Made by a program: the position numbers and the translations under genes. The notes beneath the pieces are model-generated. The model was not told the origin of the DNA, made no database searches, and saw nothing but the letters and a program-made list of their open reading frames with translations. Below, in pieces: positions 7,065-46,901 of a stretch of 58,959 bases of DNA (position 1 is the stretch's first letter; every line of letters starts with the position of its first letter). Source of the stretch: an uncultured Saprospiraceae bacterium (GTDB lineage: Bacteria; Actinomycetota; Acidimicrobiia; Spongiisociales; UBA5794); assembly GCA_964195515.1 (NCBI GenBank), contig CAXMQO010000036.1, positions 1 to 58,959 on the forward strand, in the 5' to 3' direction.

Positions 7065-7181
7065 GGGAGCCTACCCGATAGCGGCACAACCTTCGGTAGA
7101 CGGGCTTGGCAGCGTCTCGAACGCGGCGAGTCCTTCCGTCGATCCGCTACGGACGAGAAGACAGAGGGGGGCCATCTGATA

Positions 7182-26484: not shown

Positions 26485-26505
26485 GTCGTCACGCTTCCTT
26501 GTTCG

Positions 26506-28309: not shown

Positions 28310-28346
28310 GTCTGCTTTCAGGCTCTCGGGGAGCCCTCTCCTATCC

Positions 28347-30101: not shown

Positions 30102-30462
30102 GCGGCAAATCTCCTTCCTCAACGGACCTGCACCGGGATCGGCCCACGATGGACTCGATCGGACTCCGGCGCCCTTCTGTGTTCTCTGAGAGTTCCGACT
30201 CCTGCGTTGGTGCTCCTCTCACTACGTCGGTCGGACCGACTCGACGCGAAGCCCTCGTGGGACACGTCGCTCTCGAGCCTTCATCACGTCTGGTGCCGCT
30301 GTATCGAGGGGAGCGACGGCAACCATGCTCACATCCCCGAAACCGTTGGACATCCCGGCGCATCAAAGAGAATCCGCCGGACGCTCCCCAGGATATGGAG
30401 GGTCGTCACCGCAAGAGCCATCACGATGGGACGGTCTTTTCCGACACCTGCACGCATCATCC

Positions 30463-30477
30463 TCGATAATCGATTAC
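30463..30477. promoter_or_regulatory. Repeated operator TCGATAATCGATTAC
   Basis: Just downstream of the -10 box; 18 nt (ATCCTCGATAATCGATTA) identical to the site at 40144. Confidence 0.72.
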
Positions 30478-30481
30478 TTGC

Positions 30482-30511
30482 AGTTTACGGATGTGACCGC
30501 AGATCCGTCAA
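30482..30511 (-). promoter_or_regulatory. Sigma-70-type promoter for the PEP-utiliser operon
   Basis: Minus strand TTGACG-N18-TAAACT. Confidence 0.62.
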
Positions 30512-30543
30512 CTCAAGAATGGGTGGGAAGGTGCCAGTTCGAG

Positions 30544-30674
30544 GTCGCCAGTCGCCAGTCGCCGATCGCCGGCCAGAAACCCGCGTGGCGAAGCCCCCCT
30601 TCTGATAGATGCCGCCCCCTAAGCATTCGCCACCTTCCCCCATTGGGAAGGAATAGGAGTGGTGGCTGGCGACC
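30544..30674. repeat. Heptamer tandem (GTCGCCA)n with inverted partial copy and an internal hairpin
   Basis: GTCGCCA x2, GTCGCCG, ATCGCCG at 30544-30571; TGGCTGGCGACC at 30663-30674; CCTTCCC/GGGAAGG stem at 30633-30651. Confidence 0.55.
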
Positions 30675-30684
30675 GGAGACGGGT

Positions 30685-32976
30685 TCAGTCCGTCTCCAAC
30701 TCACCCATCGCCTTCAGCACCTTTTCCGGGGTGATCGGGAGGTCTCTGATGCGTACACCGATCGCGTCGTAGAGCGCGTTGGCGATCGCGGGCGGAGTCG
30801 CGGCCGCTGCCGGTTCTCCGACACCCTTGGCACCGTAGGGGGCCTCGTCGTGGACGGACTCGACGATGATCGGAGTGATCTCGGGCATGTCCATGATCGT
30901 CGCGACCTTGTAGTCCGCAAGATTCCCGTTCTCGATGCGGCCATCCCGGTATGAGAATCCTTCGAGGATCCCGTTCGAGAGACCCATCACGACGCCACCC
31001 TCGATCTGCTGCTCGACCGTCATCGGATTGATGGCCTTTCCGACATCGGCTGCGGCGGCGACCTTGAGGACGCGGATCACGCCGGTCTCGGTGTCTACCT
31101 CGATCTCTGCGGCCTGGGTGCACAACATCCAAAAGATGCTGCTCATCCACTCCTCACCGGGATCGGCCTTGAGCAGCGGCGACTTCGCGCTCGAGAAGCG
31201 CGCTCCGGCGGTGACCGAGTACCCCTCTCCGGAGTACTTCGCCAACAGATCCTTCAGCGTGATCTGGAGTTCGCCGTCGAGGTCGCAGATGGCGCCGTCG
31301 CGCATTTCGAGCGCCTCGGGTTCAACCTCGAGCACCTCGCCGGCAAGGCTAAGGACCTGTTCGCGGATCTCGGCACCGGCGGAAAGGATCGCATTGCCCA
31401 TGTGGTACGTCGTGCGACTTGACGCCACTGGTCCGTTGTATGGGGTCATGAGCGTGTCGGTGCGCGGAACCACAACATCGGTGAGCGGCACGCCGATCGC
31501 GTCTGCAGCCATCTGGGCGAGAACGGTGTCCTGCCCGGATCCGATCTCGGGAGCAGCACAGATCACGGTTGCACGTCCGTCTTGTTCGAGGTTGATGACA
31601 ACGTTCGAACTCGACGGTGTCATCGTGGGCTTGATCATGGTCGCTATGCCCTTGCCTCGCCGAAGGTGCGGCGCAGGTTCACGTTCGCCCGAACCCCACC
31701 CGATCTCAACGGCCGATCGCTCGATCGTCTCGTGCAAGCCGACGCTGTGCATGATCTGGCCGTTGAGGTAGGCGTCGCCCTCTACGTATCCATTCAGGAG
31801 ACGAATCTGCACGGGATCGATGCCCAGTTCAACAGCGATCTCGTCCATCTGCGTCTCGCACGCCCAGGTGACCTGGGTCGTGCCGTACCCGCGGTACGAG
31901 CCGGTGATCGACTTGTTGGTGTAGACCTGACGGGAGAGGATCTTGAGGTCAGGAATCCGGTACGGTCCGACGATGGTCTGGGACCCGCGGATCGCGACAC
32001 CGACCGTATACGCCGTGTAGGCGCCGCTGTCCCAGAGGACCTCGGCGCTCCGAGCGATCATGTGCCCGTCGCGGCTCACGCCCGTCTTCAGCTTCATGAT
32101 TGCCGGCACCCGCAACTGGGACGCAACGAGGTCTTCCTCGCGGGTGAATTCGACGCGGACGGGCCGGCCGCCGGCATGGCGGGCCAGCGCAACGGCGATC
32201 GCCTCGGCGACGGGAACACCTTTGCCTCCGAACGAGCCGCCAACCTGAGCGACGATGAGGCGGACGCGGCTGCTGTCGACGCCGAGACCGGCAGCGAGTT
32301 CATTGCGCAGCAGGAACGGCCGATCGGTGGAGACCCAAAGCGTGTAGCCGCCGGAGCCGGAGTCGTATTGGGCGATTGCGGCGTGCACCTCGAGGGCGAC
32401 GTGGCTGATGGCGTGGGCGGAGTACTCCCCTTCGACAACCAGGTCTGCTGCCGCGAATCCGGCCTCGACGTCGCCGCGCTCGTAGCGGTAGATCGTGTTG
32501 ATGTTGGTGTGCGGGACGATGTCGCTCGGGCCCCGTTTGTAAGCATGGAGGTCGGGGTGGACGAGCGGAGCGTCTGGGTCCAGAGCGGCGCGCATGTCGA
32601 CGACGGCAGGCATCTCTTCGTAGTCGACGCGAACGAGGTCGAGCGCCTCCTGCGCCTGTGCCTCGGTAGCCGCGGCGACGGCTACGACCGGTTCACCGAC
32701 GTAGCGCACACGGTCGATCGCCAGGAACGGCTGGTCTTTGATAGCCGCACCGAAGAGGAGCGGGAAGTCGCGACCGGTGACGACGATCTCCACGCCTGGA
32801 GCGGCTTCGGCTGCCGCCGTGTCGATCGACACGATGCGCGCATGTGGATGCGGGCTTCGAAGAACGGCGCCGTGCAGCATGCCGGGCATTGCGACGTCGA
32901 CGCCGTACACAGCGCTGCCTGTGACCTTCTCAACCGAATCGACCCGGGGTGCCCGGGTACCCACATACATCGTCAT
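30685..32976 (-). CDS. Xanthine dehydrogenase family molybdopterin-binding (large) subunit 2
   Basis: GGSFGGK, SYRGYG, EIGSG, VASSRTT, QQIEGG, KGVGEP. Confidence 0.92.
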   Translation of the reverse strand: MTMYVGTRAPRVDSVEKVTGSAVYGVDVAMPGMLHGAVLRSPHPHARIVSIDTAAAEAAPGVEIVVTGRDFPLLFGAAIKDQPFLAIDRVRYVGEPVVAVAAATEAQAQEALDLVRVDYEEMPAVVDMRAALDPDAPLVHPDLHAYKRGPSDIVPHTNINTIYRYERGDVEAGFAAADLVVEGEYSAHAISHVALEVHAAIAQYDSGSGGYTLWVSTDRPFLLRNELAAGLGVDSSRVRLIVAQVGGSFGGKGVPVAEAIAVALARHAGGRPVRVEFTREEDLVASQLRVPAIMKLKTGVSRDGHMIARSAEVLWDSGAYTAYTVGVAIRGSQTIVGPYRIPDLKILSRQVYTNKSITGSYRGYGTTQVTWACETQMDEIAVELGIDPVQIRLLNGYVEGDAYLNGQIMHSVGLHETIERSAVEIGWGSGEREPAPHLRRGKGIATMIKPTMTPSSSNVVINLEQDGRATVICAAPEIGSGQDTVLAQMAADAIGVPLTDVVVPRTDTLMTPYNGPVASSRTTYHMGNAILSAGAEIREQVLSLAGEVLEVEPEALEMRDGAICDLDGELQITLKDLLAKYSGEGYSVTAGARFSSAKSPLLKADPGEEWMSSIFWMLCTQAAEIEVDTETGVIRVLKVAAAADVGKAINPMTVEQQIEGGVVMGLSNGILEGFSYRDGRIENGNLADYKVATIMDMPEITPIIVESVHDEAPYGAKGVGEPAAAATPPAIANALYDAIGVRIRDLPITPEKVLKAMGELETD

Positions 32977-33437
32977 GCGCCTTCTCCTTTGACCTCGAGC
33001 ACTGCTTCGAGGATCTTGGGATAGGCACCGCACCGGCAGAGGATGCCACCGAGCGCCTTCTTCACGTCCTCAACGTCCGGCTGATCGTCCTTCCTGAACA
33101 GAGCGGTGGTCGTCAGCACCATGGCAGGGGTGCAGAAGCCACATTGAAATGCTCCGGTCTTGACGAACGCGTGCTGGACGTCACTGAGTTCACCGTCCGA
33201 GGCTAGGCCCTCGATGGTCTCGATGTGAACGCCGTCTGCATCCGCTGCCAGCACCAAGCACGATGTGATCGGCTCGCCGTCTGCGAGCACCACACAGGTC
33301 CCGCATTCACCGACGCCGCATCCCTCCTTTGTTCCGGTCAGCACCATGTTCTCGCGGAGCACCTCCAGAAGCGTGAGCCTGGCGTCGACAACGATCTGAA
33401 TTCGCTTGCCGTTGACGGTGAGATCGAGGCTGATCAT
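32973..33437 (-). CDS. XDH-family 2x[2Fe-2S] subunit 2
   Basis: GTKEGCGVGECGTC...C and QCGFC...CRC. Confidence 0.93.
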   Translation of the reverse strand: MISLDLTVNGKRIQIVVDARLTLLEVLRENMVLTGTKEGCGVGECGTCVVLADGEPITSCLVLAADADGVHIETIEGLASDGELSDVQHAFVKTGAFQCGFCTPAMVLTTTALFRKDDQPDVEDVKKALGGILCRCGAYPKILEAVLEVKGEGA

Positions 33438-34327
33438 CAGACCGCCACCTCGACACCGGCAGATCGGACGGCACCCCGGAGTGCCCGCAGCGTCAACACC
33501 CGCGCGAGGGTCGTGCGATACGAAGCGCTTGCCCGCATGTCACCGATCGGCCTGGCCTCGCCGCTCGCGGCTTCGGCAGCCGCTGCCAGCAGTGCCTCTG
33601 TTGGCATCTCGGAGCGCAGGAGCGACTCCGTGCCCAACGCTCGAAACGGTGTCGGCCCCAGCGAGGCCAGGGCGATTCGACAGTCGAGGATCTCACCGCC
33701 GTCGCCGATGACAACACTTGCCGACACGCCGGCGAGCGCGATATCGGTCCCGCTGCCTCGTTTGCCGAGCTTCACGTGCGCCGAGCCAAAGCCGGGTGGT
33801 GGTTGCGGCAAGGTGAAGAAGGTGATGATGTCGGACGGGGCCAGAGACGTGGCGCCGGGCCCGATGTACAAGTCTTCGGCGAGTTCGTCTCTGTCTCCAT
33901 CAACGCCTACGACGGCGGCACGGGCCTCGTGAACGATGAGGGCCGGTCCGAGGTCCGATGCCGGCGATGCGCGCCCGACGTTGCCGCCGATGGTGGCCAG
34001 AGCCCGGACGGGAGGTGATGCCAGAATCGAGGCCGCTTGCGCAAGCGCCGGGTGACGCTGCTGAACGAGAAGGGACGCCTCGACGGCGGCCACCTTCGTG
34101 AGCGCACCAATCCGGGTCCCGCCCGCATTGTCCTCAACGCCGCTGAGACCGGGAATTCGCTTGAGGTTGACGACCGTAGATGGTCGCATGCGACCCATCT
34201 TCATGTCCACGACCAGGTCGGTCCCTCCCGCGAGGACGCGTGCCCCATCACCCGCGATGGCGAGGATCTGAACCGCCTCATCGAGGGAGGTCGGTTCGTA
34301 GTAGTCGAATTCACGGAGTCGTTTCAA
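33437..34327 (-). CDS. XDH-family FAD-binding subunit 2
   Basis: LAGGTDL, ATIGGN, SPASD, RASASYR; TTG start. Confidence 0.92.
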   Translation of the reverse strand: MKRLREFDYYEPTSLDEAVQILAIAGDGARVLAGGTDLVVDMKMGRMRPSTVVNLKRIPGLSGVEDNAGGTRIGALTKVAAVEASLLVQQRHPALAQAASILASPPVRALATIGGNVGRASPASDLGPALIVHEARAAVVGVDGDRDELAEDLYIGPGATSLAPSDIITFFTLPQPPPGFGSAHVKLGKRGSGTDIALAGVSASVVIGDGGEILDCRIALASLGPTPFRALGTESLLRSEMPTEALLAAAAEAASGEARPIGDMRASASYRTTLARVLTLRALRGAVRSAGVEVAV

Positions 34328-34352
34328 ACTCCGCCCCTCCTGTCGATCGGTT

Positions 34353-34739
34353 TCATTTCTGCTGCAGCAACTCGAGCGTAACGCCGTCGGGAGTCTCTAC
34401 GAAGGCGATAGTGAAGCCTCCTGCACCTGGCCGTGGCCCGTCGACCATCAGTCCCTGCTCACGAAACCGGTCCAGGTCCGCATCGAGGTCTGCGGTGAGG
34501 ATGCCGATGTGTTCCAGTCCCAGGTAGGGGATGGCCGGGGGATCATCGATCGACTCGTCCTCCCCGGGACCGGGTGTGGTGATGTTGAGTCGGACCCCGT
34601 CGAACTCGACCGGAGTGAACAGCATCGTCCCGAACTGGATCTCCGGAAGTCTCGTTCCGCCGAACATGTCGAGCCACCACTCGGCGCTCGCATCCGGGTC
34701 TCTCGACTTGATGTGAATGTGATGGAGGGCGTGTGCCAT
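34353..34739 (-). CDS. VOC/glyoxalase family protein
   Basis: LHHIHI, LEHIGI, FVETPDGVTLEL metal-binding pattern. Confidence 0.88.
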   Translation of the reverse strand: MAHALHHIHIKSRDPDASAEWWLDMFGGTRLPEIQFGTMLFTPVEFDGVRLNITTPGPGEDESIDDPPAIPYLGLEHIGILTADLDADLDRFREQGLMVDGPRPGAGGFTIAFVETPDGVTLELLQQK

Positions 34740-34975
34740 GTTGCTCCTTCGGTCTCGTCATTCCCTGCATACTCTCGTGACGTGATGACGGTGGTTGCCC
34801 CACCACCGTCATACCGCTCTCCAACCGTTCGAATTCGGTCACCGACCATCGGTTGACAGCCGCAACGTTAGCCAGACGAGCTGAGCCTCTCGCAAGCGGA
34901 TCCCTGGAATCGGGTACAGCGAACTCGCTACAGCGGCTGCTGCGCTGAAGTGGTGTGAACCCATTCCTCGTTGGT

Positions 34976-35005
34976 TTGACGGGGCCCAAACACAAAACAT
35001 ATAAT
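34976..35005 (+). promoter_or_regulatory. Near-consensus sigma-70 promoter for ABC operon 2
   Basis: TTGACG-N18-TATAAT in a roughly 65% GC background. Confidence 0.72.
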
Positions 35006-35012
35006 CGATTAT
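35001..35012. promoter_or_regulatory. Operator ATAATCGATTAT overlapping the -10 box
   Basis: Perfect 12-bp palindrome, same core as 30463, 40148, 46758. Confidence 0.72.
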
Positions 35013-35178
35013 CTATGAACGATAGTTCTGCGGCAACCGCCGCGACGCATCACGACGCGATGGCAGCAATGGATTGCGGGCCACCGTCGAGACACCTTGT
35101 CGAAGGTGTGTCAGCCCCTAGGCTGTCGTTGTCCCTTGGGGCGACGACACCAAGTGGACCGGGAGAGACCGAGGTCTG

Positions 35179-36051
35179 ATGGACATCATCTCCGACTCAA
35201 TCGTTGTTGGCCTGACGGAGCAGGCTCCCCTCATTCTCGCCGCCATGGGCTTCGCTCTTCTGTACCGCCTCACGGGTCTCATCAATGTGGCCTACTCAGA
35301 GACGATCACGCTCGGCGCCTACATGGCGATGTGGATCAACACTACGTTCGACCTCAACTTCTACACCATCCTCATTCCGACCGGGATTCTCGCGGGGCTG
35401 ATCAGCGTAGCCACCTACTTCGCGGTCTTCAGACCGGCCAAACTCCGCCACGTCGGCGGTCTGGAAATGATCATCATCTCCTTTGGCCTATCCGTCTTCC
35501 TCCGCCACGGCCTGCAGTTCGTGTTCGGTTACCCGGTCCGGTTCTTCGACGTACCCGCCCCGCACACGATCTTCGTGCTGGGAGTGGGAGTCTCGTCGTT
35601 CCGCCTCGTCGCCGTGATCAGTGTCTTTGTCCTCGCCCTGGGACTCTTCTGGTTCATCCAGAAGACCAGCTACGGACTCCAAATCCGAGCCCTGGCCAGC
35701 GACGAGGGTCTGGCGCAGGTCAGCGGGATCCGGCCGCTGGCCGTCACCGTCTTGATCTGGTTCCTCGCCGGTGTCGCCGGCGGCCTCGCCGGTGCGTTCT
35801 ACGGCGTCGGTTCCGCAGCCGCTCCATTGCTCGGATGGCGACAGTTCCTCTTCATCCTGCTGGTCGTTCTGGTGGGAGGGGCCAAGAACATTGGAGGCGT
35901 CATCATCGTCGGAGCGATTACGGCCGTGTCGCTCACCTTCATGACGCTTCAATTCGGTCAGGCGCTCTACTCCCAACTGGTGCTCATCGTTGTGTTCATC
36001 GTCATCCTGAAGGTCCGCGGAACGCGGGCGGCCGAAGCGGGGAAGGTCTAG
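35179..36051 (+). CDS. Branched-chain-amino-acid-type ABC permease (LivH-like)
   Basis: GLINVAYSE, GLQIRALAS, VLVGGAKNIGG. Confidence 0.88.
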   Translation: MDIISDSIVVGLTEQAPLILAAMGFALLYRLTGLINVAYSETITLGAYMAMWINTTFDLNFYTILIPTGILAGLISVATYFAVFRPAKLRHVGGLEMIIISFGLSVFLRHGLQFVFGYPVRFFDVPAPHTIFVLGVGVSSFRLVAVISVFVLALGLFWFIQKTSYGLQIRALASDEGLAQVSGIRPLAVTVLIWFLAGVAGGLAGAFYGVGSAAAPLLGWRQFLFILLVVLVGGAKNIGGVIIVGAITAVSLTFMTLQFGQALYSQLVLIVVFIVILKVRGTRAAEAGKV

Positions 36052-36055
36052 CGGC

Positions 36056-37006
36056 ATGAACTTGGACTGGCTCGACGCATTCCTCGTATACGGACTCTTC
36101 TCCGTCTTGATGGTGATCGGTCTGGCCCTGCTGCTTCATCTACAGCTGGGACTCGCCCGGATCGCCAACTTCGGCATCGTCGGCTTCTGGGGTTTGGGGA
36201 TGTACGCCTTCGGTGTGCTGTTCGTCCGGGTCGACTGGCCCTTTGGCGAGGTCTGGGCATTCCTCATATCTATGGCATTCGGTACGCTCGTGGCCGGTCT
36301 CGCCGGCCTCGCCGTCGGATGGGTGATCGCCGACCTCGACACGGACGGCGTGCTCGTGGGCACGCTCGGCTTCGCCACCTGCGTGTGGATCGTGGCAACG
36401 ACCGAGCAAGACCTGACGGGTGGGGCGCTCGGAATGGGCGGACTCGGCTTCCCCTATGACATCGGCAGCGTCAAGGCGAACGAGACACTGTGGCTGGCGA
36501 TCCTGGCCATCGTGGTCGCCTTGATCCTCTACTACGTGTCTCGCGTCCACAAGTCGTCATACGGCCGATTGCTCATTTCGATCGGTGACAACGAGCCGCT
36601 GGCACGCAGCCTGGGAAAGCGGTCTTTCCGAACCAAGCTGTTGCTGTTCGCCGGCACTTCGGCGGCCATGGGATTCCTGGGCGCCATCTTCGGGGTGATG
36701 GAGCGGTTCCTGGATACCGGCAACCTCGGAATCGATATCACCCTCGCAGCCATGGTCGCACTGGTGGTCGGCGGTACCACGCGGACCTGGGGAGCCGTCG
36801 TCGGCGCCGCTCTGACCGTGGCGATTTTCGACATTCTCTTTCAGTCCTACATCCCGTTCCCTCAGTCGTGGTATGGACAAGCAATTCCGAACATTCGGGA
36901 GATGACGTTCGGCGCCGCTCTCATTCTCGTTCTCATGTTCCGGCCGAACGGCATGCTCGGCGAGATGCGAAGGGATAAGTTGATGCGGAGGATGCATGGC
37001 AGCTGA
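36056..37006 (+). CDS. Branched-chain-amino-acid-type ABC permease (LivM-like)
   Basis: GLARIANFG, YGRLLISIGDNE, VVGGTTRTWG. Confidence 0.88.
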   Translation: MNLDWLDAFLVYGLFSVLMVIGLALLLHLQLGLARIANFGIVGFWGLGMYAFGVLFVRVDWPFGEVWAFLISMAFGTLVAGLAGLAVGWVIADLDTDGVLVGTLGFATCVWIVATTEQDLTGGALGMGGLGFPYDIGSVKANETLWLAILAIVVALILYYVSRVHKSSYGRLLISIGDNEPLARSLGKRSFRTKLLLFAGTSAAMGFLGAIFGVMERFLDTGNLGIDITLAAMVALVVGGTTRTWGAVVGAALTVAIFDILFQSYIPFPQSWYGQAIPNIREMTFGAALILVLMFRPNGMLGEMRRDKLMRRMHGS

Positions 37007-37823
37007 TACCAGCGACACCGCGTCGACCGCGGAGCCCACCGGTGGCAGCGCAGGTTCGCGTCCCAATGTCCACATCCAAGACGCCACGAAGAGCTTCGGT
37101 GGACGCGTCGTCGTGGATATCGACGATTTGATCTTGGGGACGCACCCGATCGAAGGACTGATCGGCCCAAACGGAGCGGGCAAGACCACGCTCATGCGGA
37201 TGATCACGCACGCCATCTCCCTCGACAAGGGCACCGTCACACTCTCGGCCCATGACAACGACGGACCGGTGGTTCTCTCGAACCTGCCGACCAGCAGCAT
37301 GGCTCAACACGGCGTGGCGAAGACGAACCAGGTGATCACCGACTTCGAACAACTGACGATCCTGGACTCGATGCTCCTCTCGATCGCGAAGGGGCCCGAC
37401 GAGCGGGCCTACAAGATCTACCGAGAGCAAGGCCTCTACGCGGACCACATCGATGAGATCCAGTGGTATCTCGATCAGTTCGACTTCGAGGATCCGTATG
37501 GGTTCGCCGGCTCAGCCGGTGAGAAGAAGCTCCTGGACATCATTCGCTGTCTGCTGCTGAGGCCGCGGGTCCTGCTCCTCGACGAGCCAACCGCGGGCCT
37601 CCCCGACCACGTCCGCGATCAACTCATGGAACTCATCAAGCAGAAGACCGCAGAGGAGAATATGGCTGTCGTGATCGTCGAGCACGATCTGCATGTGATC
37701 TGGACCATGTGTGACTACGTCCATTTCATGGCCGAGGGGAGCGTTGTGCTGCAGGGCGAACCCGCGTACATCAGGGACCACGAAACCGTGATCGAGCAGT
37801 ACTTGGGCAGCGGCCATGTTTGA
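36996..37823 (+). CDS. ABC ATP-binding protein (LivG-like)
   Basis: GPNGAGKT, LLLDEPTAG, VEHD; degenerate signature GSAGEKK. Confidence 0.87.
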   Translation: MAADTSDTASTAEPTGGSAGSRPNVHIQDATKSFGGRVVVDIDDLILGTHPIEGLIGPNGAGKTTLMRMITHAISLDKGTVTLSAHDNDGPVVLSNLPTSSMAQHGVAKTNQVITDFEQLTILDSMLLSIAKGPDERAYKIYREQGLYADHIDEIQWYLDQFDFEDPYGFAGSAGEKKLLDIIRCLLLRPRVLLLDEPTAGLPDHVRDQLMELIKQKTAEENMAVVIVEHDLHVIWTMCDYVHFMAEGSVVLQGEPAYIRDHETVIEQYLGSGHV

Positions 37824-38508
37824 GGCCAACGGCATCCGCAGCGGCTACACCGGTGTGACGGTGATCAAGGACTTCGATTTCAGCGTGGAACACGAGATCT
37901 TCGCGATCCTCGGTGCGAACGGAGCAGGCAAGACGACCCTGCTCGCCACCCTGGCTCGGCTCATCCCCCTGATGGCTGGCCAGATGCAATTCGACGGAAC
38001 GGACATCACGACATCTCACCCCTGGGACACCGCTGCACTCGGTCTCGGATACGTGCCCCAGGAGAAAGGTATCTTCCCGGACCTGACCGTGCTAGAGAAC
38101 CTGCAAGTCGGAGCGATGATCGGCGACCGGCCTCGACAAGAACGGATCGACGAGATCGTCGAGTTGTTCCCCGACATCGGGAAGCGACATGCCCAGCTGG
38201 CAGGGACGCTGAGCGGCGGCGAGTCGCGAATGGTCGCCTGTGGACGGGCGCTGATGCAGGATCCTAAGATGTTGTTGCTGGACGAACCGACCGCCGGGCT
38301 CTCGCCGCTCTACGTCGACACATTCTTCGAGAAGATCCGAGAGATTCACGAATCGAAAGGCGTCAGCATCATCCTCGCGGAGCAGAACGCCACGAAGGCA
38401 CTCGAGATTTCCGATCGCGTCATGGTGCTGAACCTCGGTGAGGCGTCCGAGGTGCTCAACGCCTCCGACTTGACGACGGAGCAACTCAAAGAGGGGTATC
38501 GGATCTGA
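37816..38508 (+). CDS. ABC ATP-binding protein (LivF-like)
   Basis: ATG TTT GAG at 37816 on + strand (track label is wrong); GANGAGKT, LSGGE, LLLDEP. Confidence 0.92.
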   Translation: MFEANGIRSGYTGVTVIKDFDFSVEHEIFAILGANGAGKTTLLATLARLIPLMAGQMQFDGTDITTSHPWDTAALGLGYVPQEKGIFPDLTVLENLQVGAMIGDRPRQERIDEIVELFPDIGKRHAQLAGTLSGGESRMVACGRALMQDPKMLLLDEPTAGLSPLYVDTFFEKIREIHESKGVSIILAEQNATKALEISDRVMVLNLGEASEVLNASDLTTEQLKEGYRI

Positions 38509-38544
38509 TCGCCGTACGGCGATCCGTTTGGAGGAAAAGAAAGG

Positions 38545-39975
38545 ATGGGACGAATGCGAATACGCTCAAAGAGGTTCGCTAGCGGATTAATTCTGCTGTT
38601 CGTGCTTTCGTTGATCGCCGCTGCGTGCAGCAGTGATAGCACAGACGAGGCGAGCGACACGACCGTGGCAACCGAAACAACGGCAGCAACCGAAACAACC
38701 GAAGCAATGTCCAGCGAACCAGTCATCGTGTGTGAGCTCGCCTACTTCACAGGGGAGTTCGCAGCCTACGGACCGTCACTCACGGCGGATGTCGAGTTCC
38801 CGATCTCTCAGGTCATCAATCTCGATCCACCGCTCGGCCGCGAGTGGCAGCTCATCTCCGAAGATATCGGCACGCCCGGTGAGGCTCAGGCAGCTCGTAT
38901 CTGCCTCGAGCAACACAACGCTGAGGTCTTGGTGAGCCAGGCTCACGGCTATCGGACGTACCGCGACTTCATGCTGGAGTACCTTGCCGAGAATGACAAA
39001 CCGCTCGGACCAACGGTCCACGGCGGCGGCATCCCCGGGAATATCGGTGGAGTCGGTTCCGAACCGCTCTTCCGTGCCCAGGGACTCGACGAGGCGCTGG
39101 GGATGACCGGTGCCGTGGCCGCCCAGGCCGCTGGTGCTCAGTCCGTGGTCATCTTCGCAACCCAGGTCGAAGGCTTCCAGCTCGCCGCGGATGCGGCCGA
39201 GAAGACAGCTGCTGCACTCGGGATCGAAGTGCTTGACCGCATCGACGTTCCCGCGGAGCAGCCATCATACGGGGCCGAAGCCCAACTGATCGCTGGCCTG
39301 GACCCGGACGCCGTGATCGTGCAAGCAGGTTCGGTGGAGTCGGCCACGCTGATCAAGGCGGCTTCCGAAGCCGGCTTGTCCCTCGCATGGATCGGTGAGA
39401 CCGGCTGGATCCAGCCGGAGTTCATCGGAACCCTGGGAACGGATGCCATTGCCACCCAGGAGGGCATCGGCTACGCGGCGTTCGCCTACAACGACACAAC
39501 TCCCGCATGGGAGTTCTACCAGCCGCTGTGGGATGACACCCCCGGATACGGTGACCTGTACGGCCCGGCGACGGACCAGTACCACTTCTCGACGTACGAC
39601 GTGATGACACACACGGCGCTGGCCGTTGCGTACGCAGGTTCGTATGCGGCAAGTGCGTGGGCACCGGCGATGTTCGAGGTTGGGAACCCGCCTGGCACCA
39701 TGTGCTACAGCTATCCGGAGTGCAAGGCGTTGATCGACGCCGGTGAGGACATCGACTACGACGGTGTCACCGGACCCGGCACGTATAGCGCCGGCGGGGT
39801 CAACGTCATCGTTCAGTCATTCACCCCGTTCAATGACGACGGCACCATCGGTACGGCAGTCATTCTCGATCCGAAAGTTGCGCTGACGGTACTCGAGCAG
39901 ATCGCCATCCAGGCCGAGTGCGAAACTCCGAACCCGGCAGGGACGGATCCCGCATCACCGAAGTGTGAGTGGTAA
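38545..39975 (+). CDS. ABC solute-binding lipoprotein (PBP1 type)
   Basis: Lipobox AAAC, Thr-rich linker, DPPLGREWQLISED, DIDYDGVTG; last gene of the operon. Confidence 0.85.
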   Translation: MGRMRIRSKRFASGLILLFVLSLIAAACSSDSTDEASDTTVATETTAATETTEAMSSEPVIVCELAYFTGEFAAYGPSLTADVEFPISQVINLDPPLGREWQLISEDIGTPGEAQAARICLEQHNAEVLVSQAHGYRTYRDFMLEYLAENDKPLGPTVHGGGIPGNIGGVGSEPLFRAQGLDEALGMTGAVAAQAAGAQSVVIFATQVEGFQLAADAAEKTAAALGIEVLDRIDVPAEQPSYGAEAQLIAGLDPDAVIVQAGSVESATLIKAASEAGLSLAWIGETGWIQPEFIGTLGTDAIATQEGIGYAAFAYNDTTPAWEFYQPLWDDTPGYGDLYGPATDQYHFSTYDVMTHTALAVAYAGSYAASAWAPAMFEVGNPPGTMCYSYPECKALIDAGEDIDYDGVTGPGTYSAGGVNVIVQSFTPFNDDGTIGTAVILDPKVALTVLEQIAIQAECETPNPAGTDPASPKCEW

Positions 39976-40010
39976 GCGATAGTCAGTCCGAAGACAACGA
40001 GTAACACAGA

Positions 40011-40044
40011 AGAGGCGGCAGCGGGACCACCCGCTGCCGCCTCT
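40011..40044 (+). terminator. 15-bp stem-loop after SBP gene 2
   Basis: AGAGGCGGCAGCGGG-ACCA-CCCGCTGCCGCCTCT followed by CTCTAT. Confidence 0.75.
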
Positions 40045-40147
40045 CTCTATGAGAAGCGCCTCGTAGCTACTCCGGCGTTCCGCTACCTCTCGCCGACCCA
40101 ACACTCACACCACCAACGCCCGCGTGCAGTTCCCTTTTCCAAGATCC

Positions 40148-40162
40148 TCGATAATCGATTAT
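40148..40162. promoter_or_regulatory. Operator TCGATAATCGATTAT
   Basis: 70 nt upstream of the AhpD-PTP-PPDK-Tm-1 gene run. Confidence 0.72.
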
Positions 40163-40232
40163 GCTGCCCGAGTCGCTCTCGTCGAGGCTCAAATCCACCT
40201 CGGGAGACGCAGCCACAAGCAAAGGAGAACTC

Positions 40233-40850
40233 ATGTCCCGCCTCGAAGCGCTGCCCCTCGAAGAGGTTCCCGGCATGGAGGAGATCGCAGAACGGTACGA
40301 ACGGGTCTTCGGCTTCGTTCCCAACGGTGTGCGCATCATGGCTCGGCGGCCAGCGATCGTTGAGGGATTTCTCCACCTGCGCGGCGCCGTCTTCGATCCG
40401 GCGACGAGCGAGGTACCGCCCGAGCTGAAGGGCCTGATCGGGCATATCGCCAGCAAGACCGCAGGCTGCCGGTACTGCCAGGCCCACGCGATCTACGGTG
40501 CGGACCGCGCCGGAACGGACCGGGCTCGTCTCGACGAACTGTGGGAGTTCGAGACCAGCGATCTCTTCGACGAGTCCGAACGGGTCGCGTTGCGCTTCGC
40601 CGTCTCGGCTGCCGCCTCACCAAGCGGGGTCACCGACGAAGACTTCGTGCGACTGAACGAGTACTGGGACGACGGACAGATCGTCGAGATCCTCGCCGTC
40701 GTCGCGCTCTACGGATTCCTCAACCGGTGGAACGACTCACTCGCCACCACCCTCGAAGAGCCGTCCCAGACGGTCACCGAAGAGGTCCTCGGTTCGAAGG
40801 GCTGGGAAGTCGGCAAGCATCGTCGCAATGAGGCGGCGGACGTTGACTGA
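40233..40850 (+). CDS. Carboxymuconolactone decarboxylase/AhpD-like peroxidase
   Basis: GFVPN, AGCRYCQAH (CxxC), SERVAL, QIVEIL; AAGGAG before ATG 40233. Confidence 0.85.
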   Translation: MSRLEALPLEEVPGMEEIAERYERVFGFVPNGVRIMARRPAIVEGFLHLRGAVFDPATSEVPPELKGLIGHIASKTAGCRYCQAHAIYGADRAGTDRARLDELWEFETSDLFDESERVALRFAVSAAASPSGVTDEDFVRLNEYWDDGQIVEILAVVALYGFLNRWNDSLATTLEEPSQTVTEEVLGSKGWEVGKHRRNEAADVD

Positions 40851-41640
40851 AGCATCCTCCCCCACCGCGACCGTGGTGGTCGACGGAGCGCCGAACTTCC
40901 GCGATGTCGGCGGGTACGAGACGGCCGATGGTCGCCGCGTCCGCTACGGCAAGCTGTTCCGCTCAGGGATGCTGGTCGGCGTCTCCGACGATGGCGTCGC
41001 AACACTTGACGCCCTCGGAATCCGAACGGTCGTCGATCTGCGAACCCAGGTCGAGGTCGATGCGCTCGGGCCCGATCGCCTGCCGGAAGGCACGCGCGTC
41101 GTACAGATCCGGATCCCCAGCGCCGGGGCCGACCCGATGGTCGTCGAGGCACTCAAGACCGGCCACTTCCCCTACCTCCCCGATCTCGTGTCTGCAAACC
41201 GGGCCTACATCACCGATGACGCCGTCCAGTTCGGCGACCTCTTCGCGCTGCTCACCGACTCGGCCAACCTCCCCGTCATCATCCATTGCCTCGGGGGGAA
41301 GGACCGGACCGGCGTGAGCATCGCTCTGCTGCTCACGATCCTCGGCGTCCCATGGCCGATCGTGCGACAGGACTACCTCCTCTCAAACGTCTACTTCGCG
41401 AACTCGGCCGGTGACCAACCAGACTCCCTGAACCGGGTCATGGAGCGAAGCCTCGGTCATGCCCCCGACTTCGGTGACGAGGAGTCAAGGAGGGAATTCT
41501 TTGTGCTTCGTCCCGAGTACATCGACGTCGTGCTCGACGAGACCACGAAGAACGGGCGTACCTTTGACGAGTTCGTCCGGGACGAACTGAGACTCTCGGC
41601 CGCAAACGTGGAACGACTCCGCGCGGATTTTCTGGAGTGA
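40828..41640 (+). CDS. Tyrosine-protein phosphatase family (PtpB/Y_phosphatase3-like)
   Basis: NFRDVGG, LFRSG, VDLRT, HCLGGKDRTG (CX5R), DYLLSN. Confidence 0.9.
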   Translation: MRRRTLTEASSPTATVVVDGAPNFRDVGGYETADGRRVRYGKLFRSGMLVGVSDDGVATLDALGIRTVVDLRTQVEVDALGPDRLPEGTRVVQIRIPSAGADPMVVEALKTGHFPYLPDLVSANRAYITDDAVQFGDLFALLTDSANLPVIIHCLGGKDRTGVSIALLLTILGVPWPIVRQDYLLSNVYFANSAGDQPDSLNRVMERSLGHAPDFGDEESRREFFVLRPEYIDVVLDETTKNGRTFDEFVRDELRLSAANVERLRADFLE

Positions 41641-41703
41641 ACGATGAATCGGACACGAAGACGTGTATGACAAACAGAACAACCGATCGGGGAGATTGAC
41701 GAG

Positions 41704-43863
41704 ATGACCTACGTCTATGCATTCGACCACCAGCACGAGGGCTCGTTCGACGAGACCAAGGCACTCGTCGGCGGCAAAGGGGCGAACCTCGCGGTGATGA
41801 CGAGCGAGTTGGGTCTTCCGGTCCCCCCCGGGTTCACGATTTCAACAGAGGCGTGCCGGTTGTACCTCGCCGAGGGCTGGCCGCCCGGCCTCGACACCGA
41901 ACTGCGCGACCACATCGGTCGTGTCGAGGCGGCCGTCGGACGGCGATTCGGAGATCCCTCTAATCCGCTGCTCGTCAGCGTCCGCTCCGGAGCATCGGTC
42001 TCGATGCCGGGCATGATGGACACGATCCTCAACCTCGGTATCAACGACGCCACCGAGCAAGGACTGGTCACGGTCTCAGGGGATCCTGAGTTCGTTGCGG
42101 CGTGTCGCGGCCGCTTCGTCTCGACGTACCGCGAGGTCGTCGGTGTCGCCGAGGTTCCGGTGGACCCCTTCGACCAGCTTCGTGGGGCAGTCGAGGCGGT
42201 CTTCCGCTCCTGGAATGGCGATCGTGCCCGTGCCTACCGCACCCACGAGAGGATTCCCGATGACCTCGGCACCGGGGTCACGGTCCAGGCGATGGTGTTC
42301 GGCAACAGCGGTCCGAACTCGGCGACGGGAGTCGTGTTCACTCGCAACCCCGCAACCGGCGAACGGGTCCTCTACGGGGACGTCCTCTTCAACGCACAGG
42401 GCGAAGACGTCGTGGCAGGAACTCACGCAACACAACCCATCGCCTACCTCGACGAACGGGAACCGGTGATCGCAGAGGAACTCAAACGTTATGCCGACCA
42501 CCTCGAACGTCACTACGTGGACGTGTGCGACATCGAGTTCACGATCGAAGCAGGTCGGCTGTGGATGCTGCAGACGCGGATCGGCAAACGCTGCCCGGAG
42601 GCGGCCCTCCGTATCGCCAAGGAGATGGCCGAGGATCCCGACTTCCCACTCTCGCGTCGCGAAGCCGTGATCCGAGTCGCGGATCATCTCGCGTCGCCTC
42701 CCACCGCGGCTACGAAGCGCTCGGCGGAGGCGGCGCCCATCGTCACGGGTCTCGGTGCTTCCCCAGGGCTCGTCGCCGGAGAGATCGTAACAACACCCAA
42801 TGCCGCCGTGGAAGCCGTCGCGAAGGGCAGGTCGGTCATTCTCGTCCGCAGGGAGACCTCCCCCGACGACGTTCATGGCATGGCGGCCGCCGCGGGCATC
42901 CTCACGGCGACCGGGGGCCTCGCCTCCCACGCCGCCGTCGTCGCCCGGGGTTGGGGAATCCCGGCGGTAGTGGGCGCCGCAGCGATGGAGATCGGAGAAG
43001 CGACGGTGGCGATCGGCGACCACGTTCTCGTCGTTGGCGATGCCTTGACCATCGACGGCGGCACGGGCGAAGTCTTCCTCGGTGAGATCGTCGGAGAAGC
43101 AGTCGTCGTGCCCGAAGCCGAGCAGCTTCTCTCCTGGGCGGACGAGTTGGGGATCGAAATCGTCCCGATCGATGAGCAGGAGACAGAACCGACGGACGCC
43201 AACGACACCGGGAACAGTGGAGGTCAAACCATGTGCAGTAGCTCCGCAACCGTCGAGGCGATGGTGCGCCTCCTCGGCATCAAAGGATTCGCGACTTCAG
43301 ACGCGGCCGCGGCCGCTCTCCTGACGACGGAGGAGGACGCCACCGGGATCCTCCATCAGATGGCTGCAGACGGCCTGGTCACGACGATGGGTGCCATGTT
43401 CAGCCTCACCGACGACGGAAAGGCGGTCGCGGGAGAGCTCCTCGCCGTAGACCAGGAAGCATGGGGTGCGGACGATGCCCTGGCGGCGCTCGATAGCTTC
43501 CTCGCTCTGGACGGCCGCATCAAACAAATCGTTACGGACTGGCAGATGCGAGAAGTCGACGGCCTCCCAGTGCTCAACGACCATGCCGACTCGGACTACG
43601 ACGCAGCGGTCCTCACGGACCTCGAAGCGCTCCACGTCGACGCGGACGCGTGGCTCAATCGACTGCGTGGAGAGCTACCTCGGCTGGGCGCATACGCCGC
43701 GAGACTCGGTCGGGCGGCGGGATTCATAGCCGAGGGCGACTACGCCTACATCGCTTCCCCCCGACTGGACAGCTACCACAACGTCTGGTTCGAACTCCAC
43801 GAGGATCTCATTCTGCTCGCCGGTCGCACGCGGGAGGACGAGGTCGCGTCGGGCCGCGCCTGA
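41704..43863 (+). CDS. Truncated pyruvate phosphate dikinase (ATP-grasp + His swivel) fused to an Rv1126c-like C-terminal domain
   Basis: GGKGANL, LLVSVRSGA, PGMMDTILNLG, QGEDVVAG, GGLASHAAVVARG; no PEP-binding TIM barrel; C-terminus IVTDWQ...DSYHNVWFELHEDL. Confidence 0.8.
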   Translation: MTYVYAFDHQHEGSFDETKALVGGKGANLAVMTSELGLPVPPGFTISTEACRLYLAEGWPPGLDTELRDHIGRVEAAVGRRFGDPSNPLLVSVRSGASVSMPGMMDTILNLGINDATEQGLVTVSGDPEFVAACRGRFVSTYREVVGVAEVPVDPFDQLRGAVEAVFRSWNGDRARAYRTHERIPDDLGTGVTVQAMVFGNSGPNSATGVVFTRNPATGERVLYGDVLFNAQGEDVVAGTHATQPIAYLDEREPVIAEELKRYADHLERHYVDVCDIEFTIEAGRLWMLQTRIGKRCPEAALRIAKEMAEDPDFPLSRREAVIRVADHLASPPTAATKRSAEAAPIVTGLGASPGLVAGEIVTTPNAAVEAVAKGRSVILVRRETSPDDVHGMAAAAGILTATGGLASHAAVVARGWGIPAVVGAAAMEIGEATVAIGDHVLVVGDALTIDGGTGEVFLGEIVGEAVVVPEAEQLLSWADELGIEIVPIDEQETEPTDANDTGNSGGQTMCSSSATVEAMVRLLGIKGFATSDAAAAALLTTEEDATGILHQMAADGLVTTMGAMFSLTDDGKAVAGELLAVDQEAWGADDALAALDSFLALDGRIKQIVTDWQMREVDGLPVLNDHADSDYDAAVLTDLEALHVDADAWLNRLRGELPRLGAYAARLGRAAGFIAEGDYAYIASPRLDSYHNVWFELHEDLILLAGRTREDEVASGRA

Positions 43864-43904
43864 GTTCCGGAGAGCGTTCACGCTGATAGCGATAGCCTGA
43901 TCAC

Positions 43905-45188
43905 ATGGCCACAGCGGTACTCCTCGGAACACTCGACACGAAGGGAGGCGAGTATGCCTTCCTCCGAGATCGCGTAATCGAAGCCGGCTGCGATGTCGTG
44001 ATGATCAACGCCGGCGTGCTCGGTGACCCCGAGTACCCGGTTGCCTTCGGTCGGACCGACGTCGCTCATGAGGCAGGGGCCGACATCGAGACCCTCGTGG
44101 CAGCCGGAGACCGCGGCGCCGCCGTCACGGCTATGGCCGAAGGGGCGACCGCTCTTGTCCTTCGCCTGTGTGAGGAAGGCCGGATCCACGGCGTCCTCGG
44201 TATCGGCGGTTCCGGCGGTTCCTCGATCATCAGCCAGGCCATGCGGAAACTCCCGATCGGCTTCCCCAAACTCCTCGTGTCAACGATGGGTGCGGGCGAC
44301 GTAAGCGCCTTCGTCGGCACGTCGGACATCGCCATGATGTACTCGGTGGTCGACATCGCCGGTATCAACGCGGTCTCGTCGAGCATCCTCGGCAACGCCG
44401 CCGCGGGCCTGGCAGGCATGGCCAAAGCCTTCGAGGTCCGTGATCCGTCCGTCGACGGCCGTCCGCTCATCGGTGCGACGATGTATGGAACCACCACGCC
44501 GTGCGTCAATGCCGCCCGTGCCGTGCTGCAGGAGTTGGGATACGAAGTCCTGGTCTTCCACGCGACCGGGACCGGCGGTCGTTCGATGGAAGCCCTCATG
44601 AAGAGCGGCTACATCACTGCGGCACTCGACGTTACGACCACCGAACTCACCGACGAGATCGCTGGCGGAACGCTCACGGCCGGTCCTGACCGTCTGGAGG
44701 CGGCCGGCGATCTCGGTCTTCCGCAGGTGGTCTCGATCGGCGCAACCGACCAGATCACGTTCACTCCCCCGAGTGCCGTGCCCACCGAATACTGGGACCG
44801 CAACTGCTACGCCCACAACCCCAGCATCACTCTCGTGCGCACCAATGCAGAAGAGAGCGACGAATTGGGTCGTATGCTCGCCGAGAAGCTCAACCGGGCC
44901 ACCGGACCGGTCTCGCTCTTCGTTCCACTCCGCGGCGCCTCGTCCTATGCAGTCGCCGGTGCCGTCTTCCACGACCCGATCGCCGATGAAGCCCTGGTCT
45001 CGAGCCTCCGCACGCATCTCGACTCGACGGTGGAGTTGATCGAGATGGACACCGACATCAACGATCCCATCTTCGCGGAAGCCATGGCGCGTCGCCTCGA
45101 TCAGCACTACCGGACATGGTCGAAGGCTCGCTCCAACTCGGCCGACGTCGGGCAGTCCACGTCACCAGCGTCTCCACCGACTGGGTAG
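43905..45188 (+). CDS. Tm-1-like ATP-binding domain protein (UPF0261)
   Basis: LLGTLDTKG, GGSGG, LPIGFPKLLVST, VVDIAGIN, FHATGTGG, INDPIFA. Confidence 0.88.
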   Translation: MATAVLLGTLDTKGGEYAFLRDRVIEAGCDVVMINAGVLGDPEYPVAFGRTDVAHEAGADIETLVAAGDRGAAVTAMAEGATALVLRLCEEGRIHGVLGIGGSGGSSIISQAMRKLPIGFPKLLVSTMGAGDVSAFVGTSDIAMMYSVVDIAGINAVSSSILGNAAAGLAGMAKAFEVRDPSVDGRPLIGATMYGTTTPCVNAARAVLQELGYEVLVFHATGTGGRSMEALMKSGYITAALDVTTTELTDEIAGGTLTAGPDRLEAAGDLGLPQVVSIGATDQITFTPPSAVPTEYWDRNCYAHNPSITLVRTNAEESDELGRMLAEKLNRATGPVSLFVPLRGASSYAVAGAVFHDPIADEALVSSLRTHLDSTVELIEMDTDINDPIFAEAMARRLDQHYRTWSKARSNSADVGQSTSPASPPTG

Positions 45189-45198
45189 CCGCCGGACG

Positions 45199-46713
45199 TT
45201 AGGTCCGCGAAATGGTTCCTTCCCACGTGTCGACCCGCTCGCCCTTCATGGCTTCCTCGTCGAACCAGAAACTCGTGACAGCCTTCGTCTCGGTGTAGAA
45301 CATGACTCCATCGCGTCCCATGACGTGGAGGTCACCGAAGAAGCTGTTCTTGTGCCCGCTGAACGGGAACACCGAGATGGGAACCGGGATGCCAACGTTG
45401 ACGCCGACCATGCCGGCGTCGATGCGGCGAGCGAACTCACGTGCGTAGTAGCCGCTCTGGGTGAAGATCGAAGCACCGTTGGCAAACTCGCTGGAGTTGA
45501 TGAGTTCAACACCCTCATTGAAGTCGGCGACCCGCTTCACATACAAGACGGGGCCGAACACCTCTTCATTGCCGCACGACATCTCCGGCTTGACGTGGTC
45601 GAACACGGTCGGGCCCATGAAGAAGCCGCCTTCATGGCCTTCGACCTCGACTGTCCGCCCGTCGAGCACAGCCACGGCACCCTCGTCGATCGACTTGTCG
45701 ATCCAGCCGTTGACAAACGCGAAGTGCTCGGCATTGACGAGTGGGCCCATCTCGGTCGACTCATCGTACGCGGGGCCGATCTTGAGGTCCTTCGCGAGTT
45801 CAGTGATCGTTGCGACGAGTTCATCTGCGATCGATTCCTCGACGGCGATGGCGGGGAGCGCCATGCAGCGCTCGCCGGCGCATCCGAACGCCGAGTTGAT
45901 GATCCGCTGTGCGGTTGCTCGAATCGGAGCGTCGGCGAGCACGAGCGCATGGTTCTTTGCCTCGGTGAGTGCCTGCACCCGCTTGCCGTTCGCCGAAGCA
46001 GTGGAGTAGATGTGCTTACCAACGGCCGTGGATCCGACGAAGCTCACGCCTTTGACCTTCGGATGCACGAGCAGTCGTTCGGCCTCGTGTCGGGAGCAGG
46101 TCACCAGATTGAAGACACCGGGCGGCAACCCGGCCTCTTCCAGCAGTTCGGCCATCCGCATCGCCGTTTGCGGCACATACGAGGCAGCCTTGAGAACGAA
46201 GGTGTTGCCGGTCGTGACGGCAAGCGGCATCATCCATCCCATCGGGATCATTGCCGGGAAGTTCCAGGGCACGATCCCGGCGAAGACGCCCAGCGGCTCA
46301 CGGAACGTTACCGTGTCGAAGCCGGTGGCAACATTCATGAGGGAGTCACCCATCATCGTGACCGGCGCCGCACACGCGAGTTCGACAACCTCGATCGCCT
46401 TCAGCACATCGCCTCGAGCCTCGGTGTAGCTCTTCCCCATCTCGGTTGCGAGCAGCATTGACAGGTCGTGCAGATTGTCTTCGAGCAGGCCCTTGAGACG
46501 GAACATCACCTGAACGCGCTTGGTGATCGGAGTGTCGCGCCACCCGGGGAACGCTGCGGCTGCAGCCTCGACCGCTGCATCGACTTCCTCCGCCGTGCAG
46601 CGGGGGGCTTCGGCCATCACTTCGCCGGTGCTGCTGTTGGTGATCTCGTAGTAGACACCGCTCTCGGTGTCCTTCCACTCGCCTGCTACCAGATACTTCA
46701 GACGTTTCGGCAT
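45199..46713 (-). CDS. mmsA: CoA-acylating (methyl)malonate-semialdehyde dehydrogenase
   Basis: PWNFPAMIP, FVGST, AKNH, AFGCAGERCMA, EEVFGP, FSGHKNSFFGDLH. Confidence 0.92.
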   Translation of the reverse strand: MPKRLKYLVAGEWKDTESGVYYEITNSSTGEVMAEAPRCTAEEVDAAVEAAAAAFPGWRDTPITKRVQVMFRLKGLLEDNLHDLSMLLATEMGKSYTEARGDVLKAIEVVELACAAPVTMMGDSLMNVATGFDTVTFREPLGVFAGIVPWNFPAMIPMGWMMPLAVTTGNTFVLKAASYVPQTAMRMAELLEEAGLPPGVFNLVTCSRHEAERLLVHPKVKGVSFVGSTAVGKHIYSTASANGKRVQALTEAKNHALVLADAPIRATAQRIINSAFGCAGERCMALPAIAVEESIADELVATITELAKDLKIGPAYDESTEMGPLVNAEHFAFVNGWIDKSIDEGAVAVLDGRTVEVEGHEGGFFMGPTVFDHVKPEMSCGNEEVFGPVLYVKRVADFNEGVELINSSEFANGASIFTQSGYYAREFARRIDAGMVGVNVGIPVPISVFPFSGHKNSFFGDLHVMGRDGVMFYTETKAVTSFWFDEEAMKGERVDTWEGTISRT

Positions 46714-46757
46714 GAACCCACTCCTCCTCGACGGCAGACTCGGATGGTCTCAGTAGA

Positions 46758-46772
46758 ATAATCGATTATCGA
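46758..46772. promoter_or_regulatory. Operator (minus-strand TCGATAATCGATTAT)
   Basis: Between divergent mmsA and MFS genes, 45 nt upstream of mmsA. Confidence 0.72.
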
Positions 46773-46901
46773 CAATATCTCGAATTGGCCATCGCGTCGA
46801 GTGCCCCCTCTTCGCTCCGTGCACAGGTGCGTCCGATCCCGCGACTGAGCGCCGCCGGCGTTGTGTGATCATAGAAACATGACGAGGACCATTGGCATCA
46901 C

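Follow-up and report, generated by a model that had tools for sequence, protein, structure and literature searches.

A 19-bp palindromic operator predicted to bind a cluster-encoded FadR-type GntR regulator in an uncultured member of the Acidimicrobiia

The DNA described here (the window, that is, the whole stretch of 58,959 nucleotides at positions 1 to 58,959 of contig CAXMQO010000036.1) belongs to a metagenome-assembled genome (MAG) of an uncultured member of the Acidimicrobiia and carries a series of catabolic gene runs, each lying behind a copy of a short AT-rich palindrome. This palindrome, a candidate operator, and the GntR-type regulator that is predicted to bind it are the subject of the present analysis. 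Gene calling together with Pfam and NCBIfam scans places all four window copies (sites A to D) in intergenic DNA, 5' of gene runs whose products include a phosphoenolpyruvate (PEP)-utilising enzyme, two molybdenum (Mo) hydroxylases, an ABC importer, a PPDK-like protein and a UPF0261 protein (Table 1). The run behind site A extends down to the cyclase gene at 22003, a point missed in the original prediction made for this DNA; no promoter or terminator was found in the 223-nt gap between the GntR gene and the gene for the 295-aa P-loop protein.

Table 1. Operators, promoters and gene runs in the window and on contig C78 of the same MAG
Feature	Position	Strand	Content and remarks
Operon A	22003-30101	-	PEP-utiliser (591 aa), GntR, 295-aa P-loop protein, Mo-hydroxylase FAD, FeS and Mo subunits, cyclase
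FadR-subfamily GntR regulator	27617-28309	-	second gene of operon A; GntR winged helix-turn-helix and FCD domains; proposed binder
Operator A	30459-30477	-	GTAATCGATTATCGAGGAT, 27.5 bits; invariant in five congeners, upstream DNA unalignable
Promoter of operon A	30482-30511	-	TTGACG-18-TAAACT; both hexamers are invariant islands in a five-genome alignment
Operon B-left	30685-34739	-	VOC, then second Mo-hydroxylase (FAD, 2Fe-2S and Mo subunits)
Face-to-face promoters	34976-35036		plus strand TTGACG-18-TATAAT (34976-35005); minus strand TTGCCG-17-GATAAT (35036-35008)
Operator B	35001-35019	+	ATAATCGATTATCTATGAA, 27.1 bits; in the divergent VOC/XDH-ABC spacer
Operon B-right	35179-39975	+	Liv-type ABC importer: two permeases, two ATPases, binding protein
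Operator C	40144-40162	-	ATAATCGATTATCGAGGAT (minus-strand sequence), 29.8 bits; followed after 71 nt by the CMD/AhpD-like start codon
Operon C	40233-45188	+	CMD/AhpD-like, Y_phosphatase3, truncated PPDK-like (719 aa), UPF0261 (Tm-1/MarK-type)
mmsA	45199-46713	-	CoA-acylating methylmalonate-semialdehyde dehydrogenase family
Operator D	46758-46776	+	ATAATCGATTATCGACAAT, 29.7 bits; in the divergent mmsA/MFS spacer
MFS transporter	46902-48110	+	divergent from mmsA, shares operator D; predicted regulon member added to those of the original prediction
Operator, contig C78	7133-7151		between PHP-family gene and Gfo/Idh/MocA-cupin pair
Operator, contig C78	10803-10821		between E1alpha/E1beta genes and MFS gene
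Operator, contig C78	17242-17260		before cupin, split transketolase, SDR

Exact matches to the 12-mer ATAATCGATTAT are present at 35001, 40151 and 46758, with no match in 100 dinucleotide shuffles of the sequence. When a single mismatch is allowed, the 15-mer TCGATAATCGATTAT is found at 30463, 35001 (minus strand), 40148 and 46758 (minus strand), where 0.01 matches are expected. These matches and the gene calls bear out the initial claim that the motif occurs at four places, always intergenic and 5' of an operon. Two of the copies had also been said to share 18 identical nucleotides; these are the 18-mer ATCCTCGATAATCGATTA, common to sites A (30459-30476) and C (40144-40161). The promoter geometry originally proposed, with an overlap of the -10 box at 35001 and a position just downstream of TTGACG-N18-TAAACT at 30463, holds in both cases. 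In the promoter of the PEP-utiliser/GntR operon, operator A begins 4 nt past the -10 box and therefore covers the predicted transcription start. Operator B overlaps the -10 boxes of both face-to-face promoters; the plus-strand promoter matches the consensus at 11 of 12 positions and its -10 box ends at 35005, inside the site. At site C, a conserved TATGCT/TATACT hexamer overlaps the gene-proximal end of the operator.

The extent and axis of the element differ from those first proposed, which were a 15-bp unit with a palindromic core. Among the copies found in related genomes (39 distinct sequences), one flank is invariant (TC-G-A-n-G-A-T) and the other is variable, so that the 12-bp palindrome can be only part of the site. 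An unbiased 8-mer enrichment over 366 upstream regions of orthologous genes gave CGATTATC and CGATAATC as the top-ranking words (about 100 regions each), with AATCGATT ranking lower (75 of the 366 regions) and the motif centred on CGATWATC. The flanks were read from 104 sites anchored on GATWATC alone. They are mirror-symmetric out to +/-9, where conservation ends, with the column pairs A/T at -9/+9, T/A at -8/+8, M/K at -7/+7, A/T at -6/+6, T/A at -5/+5 and C/G at -4/+4. These columns define the operator as an imperfect palindrome of 19 bp, AT(A/C)ATCGAT-W-ATCGAT(T/G)AT, whose dyad falls on the central A/T. The 12-mer ATAATCGATTAT corresponds to the left arm plus the centre of this 19-mer, and seems palindromic because ATCGAT is itself self-complementary. 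We rejected a 12-bp palindrome centred on CG, which fails to account for the invariant TCGAnGAT extension; every conserved column is explained by the 19-mer centred on W. The conserved unit is thus 19 bp long and its axis lies 3.5 bp further to the right than had been proposed. A full-text literature search with the operator sequences returned only primers and CpG oligonucleotides, and no described operator with such a sequence.

The genome-wide motif scan suggested with the original prediction was run on the assembly (2.14 Mb in 132 contigs, 63% G+C, from a MAG that is 83.5% complete), and the motif is not common at unrelated sites. Its 10-bp core, TAATCGATTA, occurs in the whole assembly only at the four places in the window. 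A weight-matrix scan of the MAG retrieves seven sites scoring 25.6-31.2 bits, all of them intergenic, and the next best match reaches 16.3 bits. Three of the seven are on a second contig, C78, and themselves span 25.6-31.2 bits; the predicted regulon is therefore larger than the 25 kb to which it had been assigned. The notion of a single unit stands, on the strength of conservation at orthologous spacers (see below), while the 25-kb limit falls with the three C78 operators.

The operators are kept among relatives of the MAG. In four congeners, with proteins about 80-90% identical to those of the window, the core is retained at all four orthologous spacers; the mmsA/MFS pair of these genomes lies about 100 kb from the cluster and site D is still present. 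In alignments of the spacers the -35 box, the -10 box and the operator stand out as invariant islands, the only others being ribosome-binding sites, the upstream terminator and the island TGTGTGATCAT, and the DNA upstream of site A cannot be aligned among the congeners. The TGTGTGATCAT island (46862-46872), which is invariant in six congeners, is located in the mmsA/MFS spacer about 30 nt before the MFS start and is possibly an extended -10 box, or else a regulatory site of another kind.

Where the genes have been rearranged, in one genome of the same family and in four of the same order, each unit is still preceded by an operator (for example, UPF0261, PEP-utiliser, GntR, P-loop, XDH and cyclase genes in a single operon, or a PPDK-like gene standing alone). 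In Chloroflexota, the E1alpha/beta, cupin-transketolase-SDR, PHP and Gfo genes adjoin genes of the window type, each behind its own operator, which confirms that the window contig and C78 of the MAG belong to one unit. Between marine-sediment Acidimicrobiia, soil Chloroflexota and Thermomicrobium the operator has hardly changed. At the level of comparative genomics, the reading that these operons form one unit, a regulon, is strongly supported.

The predicted binder is encoded within the cluster. In its long open reading frame (ORF), residues 75-136 match the GntR winged helix-turn-helix domain PF00392 with 53.4 bits (cut-off 27), and the C-terminal, all-helical FCD effector domain (PF07729) scores 78 bits (cut-off 24.3). 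The best NCBIfam matches are to PhnR-, NanR-, LldR-, PdhR- and GlcC-type regulators, all below their cut-offs, and the closest solved structure, 7xp0, is distant (E = 3.6e-26); a literature search on this structure turned up nothing of use. The helix-turn-helix segment is nearly invariant among orthologues, and residues D132, H134, H144, H187 and H209, candidates for the Asp/His metal-and-ligand site of the FCD domain, are invariant across nine of them.

The number of operators in a genome follows the presence of this gene. We counted the inner 11-mer TCGATWATCGA in 61 relatives: it occurs on average 5.2 times in the 14 genomes with a GntR orthologue (at least 52% identity) and 1.1 times in the 47 without (Mann-Whitney p = 4e-8). 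In congeners without GntR, the MFS orthologue is found beside a different aldehyde dehydrogenase and has no operator. A profile scan using one genome per species collected 79 GntR-orthologue loci (49-86% identity), which belong to Acidimicrobiia and to Chloroflexota/Limnocylindria MAGs, the latter with 50-60% identity. These loci, 1.31 Mb in all, hold 64 sites with no more than two mismatches to the 19-mer, against none in ten dinucleotide shuffles. A site of at least 20 bits is present in 71 of the 79 loci, and the other eight loci are contigs between 3 and 14.5 kb long. All 147 sites in the GntR loci fall outside mapped genes. In 55 of the 79 loci the GntR gene is located downstream of an operator and in the same direction. 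It is the only regulator found in these clusters: homologues of the LacI and TetR proteins of the window are absent from every related locus, and a tblastn search of the MAG at E < 1e-8 detected no other GntR homologue.

A related cluster is present in a cultured type strain, Thermomicrobium roseum DSM 5159 (megaplasmid NC_011961.1, 50636-81286). It includes a VOC gene divergent from ABC genes, a Tm-1-like gene, GntR (TRD_RS09625, 42% identity), a cyclase, a PEP/pyruvate-binding protein, a PEP-utilising enzyme and XDH. This genome was not among the sequences used to build the matrix. Within the 30.6 kb scanned, the matrix finds its best match, at 26.6 bits, in the VOC/ABC spacer, where it overlaps TTGACA-17-TATGAT with the same geometry over the -10 box as site B of the window; the 918-kb replicon has a single exact copy of the 11-mer. 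A weaker site (17 bits) is found directly before the GntR gene. Several Chloroflexota loci contain two or three GntR paralogues each, together with two flavours of operator, one with a central W and ACAATCG arms and the other with a central C/G (ATCGATSATCGAT); paralogue-specific recognition is a possible explanation for the two flavours.

We put a probability of about 0.8 on the reading that the sites serve as operators for the FadR-subfamily GntR protein encoded in the cluster. The assignment to this protein is supported indirectly by five lines: it is the sole regulator of the clusters, it is co-directional with the operator in most loci, operator counts track its orthologues, nearly all of its loci carry a site, and T. 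roseum keeps both regulator and operator. From the position, symmetry and conservation of the sites, and from their association with the gene for the regulator, we infer its binding, the sign of regulation and the effector as follows. Most likely, a dimer of the regulator would sit on the 19-bp dyad with one winged helix-turn-helix on each arm. Since the operators cover a -10 box or a transcription start, the bound dimer would occlude these elements and block RNA polymerase, and the operons would be off. A small-molecule effector held in the FCD domain, probably the pathway substrate or an acidic intermediate, would then release the repressor. As the regulator gene is itself inside the operator-controlled operon A, the circuit would be subject to negative autoregulation. 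The regulon in the MAG would comprise seven operators: the four in the window (genes from 22003 to 48110) and the three on C78, which would govern the E1alpha/beta and MFS genes, the cupin-split-transketolase-SDR run, and the Gfo/Idh/MocA-cupin pair with the PHP gene.

A number of observations weigh against this interpretation. The consensus lacks the symmetric GT...AC pair of the canonical NyGT-Nx-ACNy core, which is typical of FadR-type operators; it does share with them the form of a palindrome of about 15-19 bp located at a promoter. The promoters at sites C and D were poorly defined in the promoter scan. The weight matrix was built from the sites of the relatives, in the same 79 loci where its hits were counted, and its independent tests are the scans of the MAG and of T. 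roseum. One relative (G009, 93% complete) keeps three sites, including that between mmsA and MFS, and no GntR or PEP-utiliser gene was found in it. An operator on its contig C15 (25026-25035), followed by a ribosome-binding site and an ATG, lies 65 nt from the contig end, and for this reason the cluster of G009 may simply be unassembled. A second relative (G054) has sites and the PEP-utiliser, with no GntR match at E <= 1e-20. Finally, since the regulator and the catabolic genes are found together, co-occurrence across genomes does not entirely tell one from the other.

Several of these points would also suit real operators that are bound by another transcription factor, encoded elsewhere in the genome, with the local GntR having a different target or role. 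The retention of three sites in G009 without a detectable GntR gene, the absence of the GT...AC core of the GntR family and the confounding of co-occurrence by the catabolic genes can all be cited in its favour. We nevertheless judge it unlikely, because the loci share no conserved regulator gene besides GntR, because GntR lies within operator-controlled operons in the 55 loci mentioned above, across three lineages, and because the MAG has no further GntR homologue at the tblastn threshold used. A different mode of binding by the local GntR has also to be considered, namely cooperative binding of more than one dimer to a 7-bp tandem repeat, ATNATCG (about 2.7 copies), in the manner of NanR. 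The 19-mer can indeed be written as a periodic sequence (ATAATCG-ATTATCG-ATGAT), many loci show secondary matches offset by exactly 7 bp, the periodicity is extended in two of them, and NanR, a member of the FadR subfamily, binds direct repeats. Such offset matches are, however, expected from the self-complementary ATCGAT arm, and the flanks are mirror-symmetric about the central W and end at +/-9; we therefore hold tandem binding to be decidedly improbable.

The window also encodes a LacI-family regulator (6975-8216), and its binding to the operators might be suspected from the presence of the gene, from the AATCGATT core that its own sites (GCAATCGATTGC) share with the operators and that is common to the sites at 7055 and 18790, and from the central CG of LacI operators. 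The operator dyad is on the W, 3.5 bp from the CG, the LacI-type sites score no more than 12.8 bits with the operator matrix, and more than 100 related operator-carrying loci are devoid of a LacI homologue, so that we attach very little weight to this idea. LacI and TetR were both ruled out as binders because homologues are missing from all related loci. The separate GCAATCGATTGC-type sites near the LacI gene, at 7055 and 18790, probably represent a distinct LacI regulon for sugar and inositol-like genes. Even less credible is the view that the motif is not a repressor site at all but a short dispersed repeat, or a promoter element of the -10 or UP type. In favour of this view are its AT-richness in a genome of 63% G+C and the GATAAT/GATTAT hexamers within it that the promoter scan calls as -10 boxes; against it, the motif is a palindrome found in either orientation with respect to the genes, its position with respect to the -35 and -10 boxes varies (downstream at site A, overlapping at site B), and it is confined to one functional gene set across phyla.

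If GntR is indeed the binder, the switch is predicted to be a standard local repressor of the GntR/FadR type with a new half-site. Escherichia coli FadR, PdhR and LldR are FadR-subfamily GntR repressors with palindromic operators. The present system resembles them in the combination of a GntR winged helix-turn-helix with an FCD domain, in the odd-centred palindrome of 17-19 bp over a promoter and in the locally encoded (and in their case often autoregulated) regulator of a catabolic regulon. It differs from them in its half-site, AT(A/C)ATCGAT, which is without the GT...AC core, and in its hosts, uncultured Acidimicrobiia and Chloroflexota plus Thermomicrobia. NanR, also of the FadR subfamily, binds GGTATA tandem repeats. 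The likeness here is in the FCD-type regulator and in an operator of short repeats spaced 7-8 bp; the repeats of the present operator are self-complementary and have a clear dyad, whereas those of NanR are direct only.

The gene content recalls the 3hpd cluster for 3-hydroxypyridine catabolism in Ensifer adhaerens HP1, for which the passages concerned describe a multi-subunit Mo hydroxylase alongside an ABC transporter, a GntR regulator (orf7) and two phosphotransfer proteins, one PPDK-like (orf9) and one with a PEP-utilising mobile domain (orf10), whose genes are both genetically required (bioRxiv 10.1101/2020.01.08.898148). The two systems have in common XDH-family FAD, FeS and Mo subunits, a PPDK-like protein, a PEP-utiliser mobile domain and GntR, matched at the level of domain content. 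In those same passages no operator or regulon is described for orf7, and the regulon predicted here adds UPF0261, the 295-aa P-loop protein, the cyclase, a second hydroxylase, the split transketolase, E1alpha/beta and mmsA. A further parallel is provided by the AcvAB and HpeHI dikinases, which together with a phosphatase carry out phospho-activation of hydroxy-aromatics, and by MarK, a UPF0261 protein recently shown to be a kinase (PMC12624787). UPF0261, split dikinase-type proteins and a phosphatase are likewise found here, which suggests a similar phosphorylate-transform-dephosphorylate logic; there is no biotin carboxylase, and Mo hydroxylases are present instead.

We put forward, as a tentative proposal only, that the operator delimits the full gene set of an undescribed phosphorylation-dependent catabolic pathway. 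If this is so, the set would consist of the split dikinase, the UPF0261 kinase, the mini P-loop protein, the phosphatase, two Mo hydroxylases and the cyclase, together with enzymes of thiamine-dependent C-C cleavage (split transketolase and E1alpha/beta) and mmsA. The regulon would then predict a route from the uptake of a hydroxylated N-heterocycle or related ring to acyl-CoA, and the effector of GntR would name the pathway substrate. The operator is rare (seven copies in the MAG) and almost unchanged across lineages, and is therefore of value as a label for members of a poorly understood kinase-coupled molybdenum-hydroxylase system. The sole genetic precedent is 3-hydroxypyridine catabolism, where the requirement for dikinase-type proteins lacks an explanation. 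To this the regulon adds the transketolase, E1, Gfo/PHP and mmsA genes and two transporters, which could not be linked by gene order in the MAG. T. roseum DSM 5159 offers a cultured strain for tests of the regulator, its effector and the substrate.

Between operator A and the start codon of the PEP-utiliser there is an untranslated leader of 358 nt (30102-30458, minus strand), with moderate conservation among five congeners. Every frame is interrupted by stop codons in the five genomes, which leaves no small ORF; RNAalifold gave no covariation support (term +2.76), and Rfam at its gathering threshold identified no RNA family in the window. Since UPF0261 sits at the position of the leader in other lineages, the leader may be a remnant, or else an unrecognised cis-regulatory RNA. 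The public DNA runs matched by the sequence are marine-sediment metagenomes, and four sediment metatranscriptomes hold fragments with 85-99% likeness. RNA contigs span the PEP-utiliser/GntR junction and the leader as far as about 30457-30495, with almost nothing past 30496. They agree with co-transcription and with the predicted start. As evidence they are weak and do not pin down where transcription begins, since the DNA upstream differs between strains and DNA may be present in the contigs. In the distal part of operon A, an 821-aa ORF on the plus strand (23055-25520) with no Pfam match is a shadow frame of the minus-strand Mo-subunit gene (22890-25202), which has congener orthologues at 86-93% identity.

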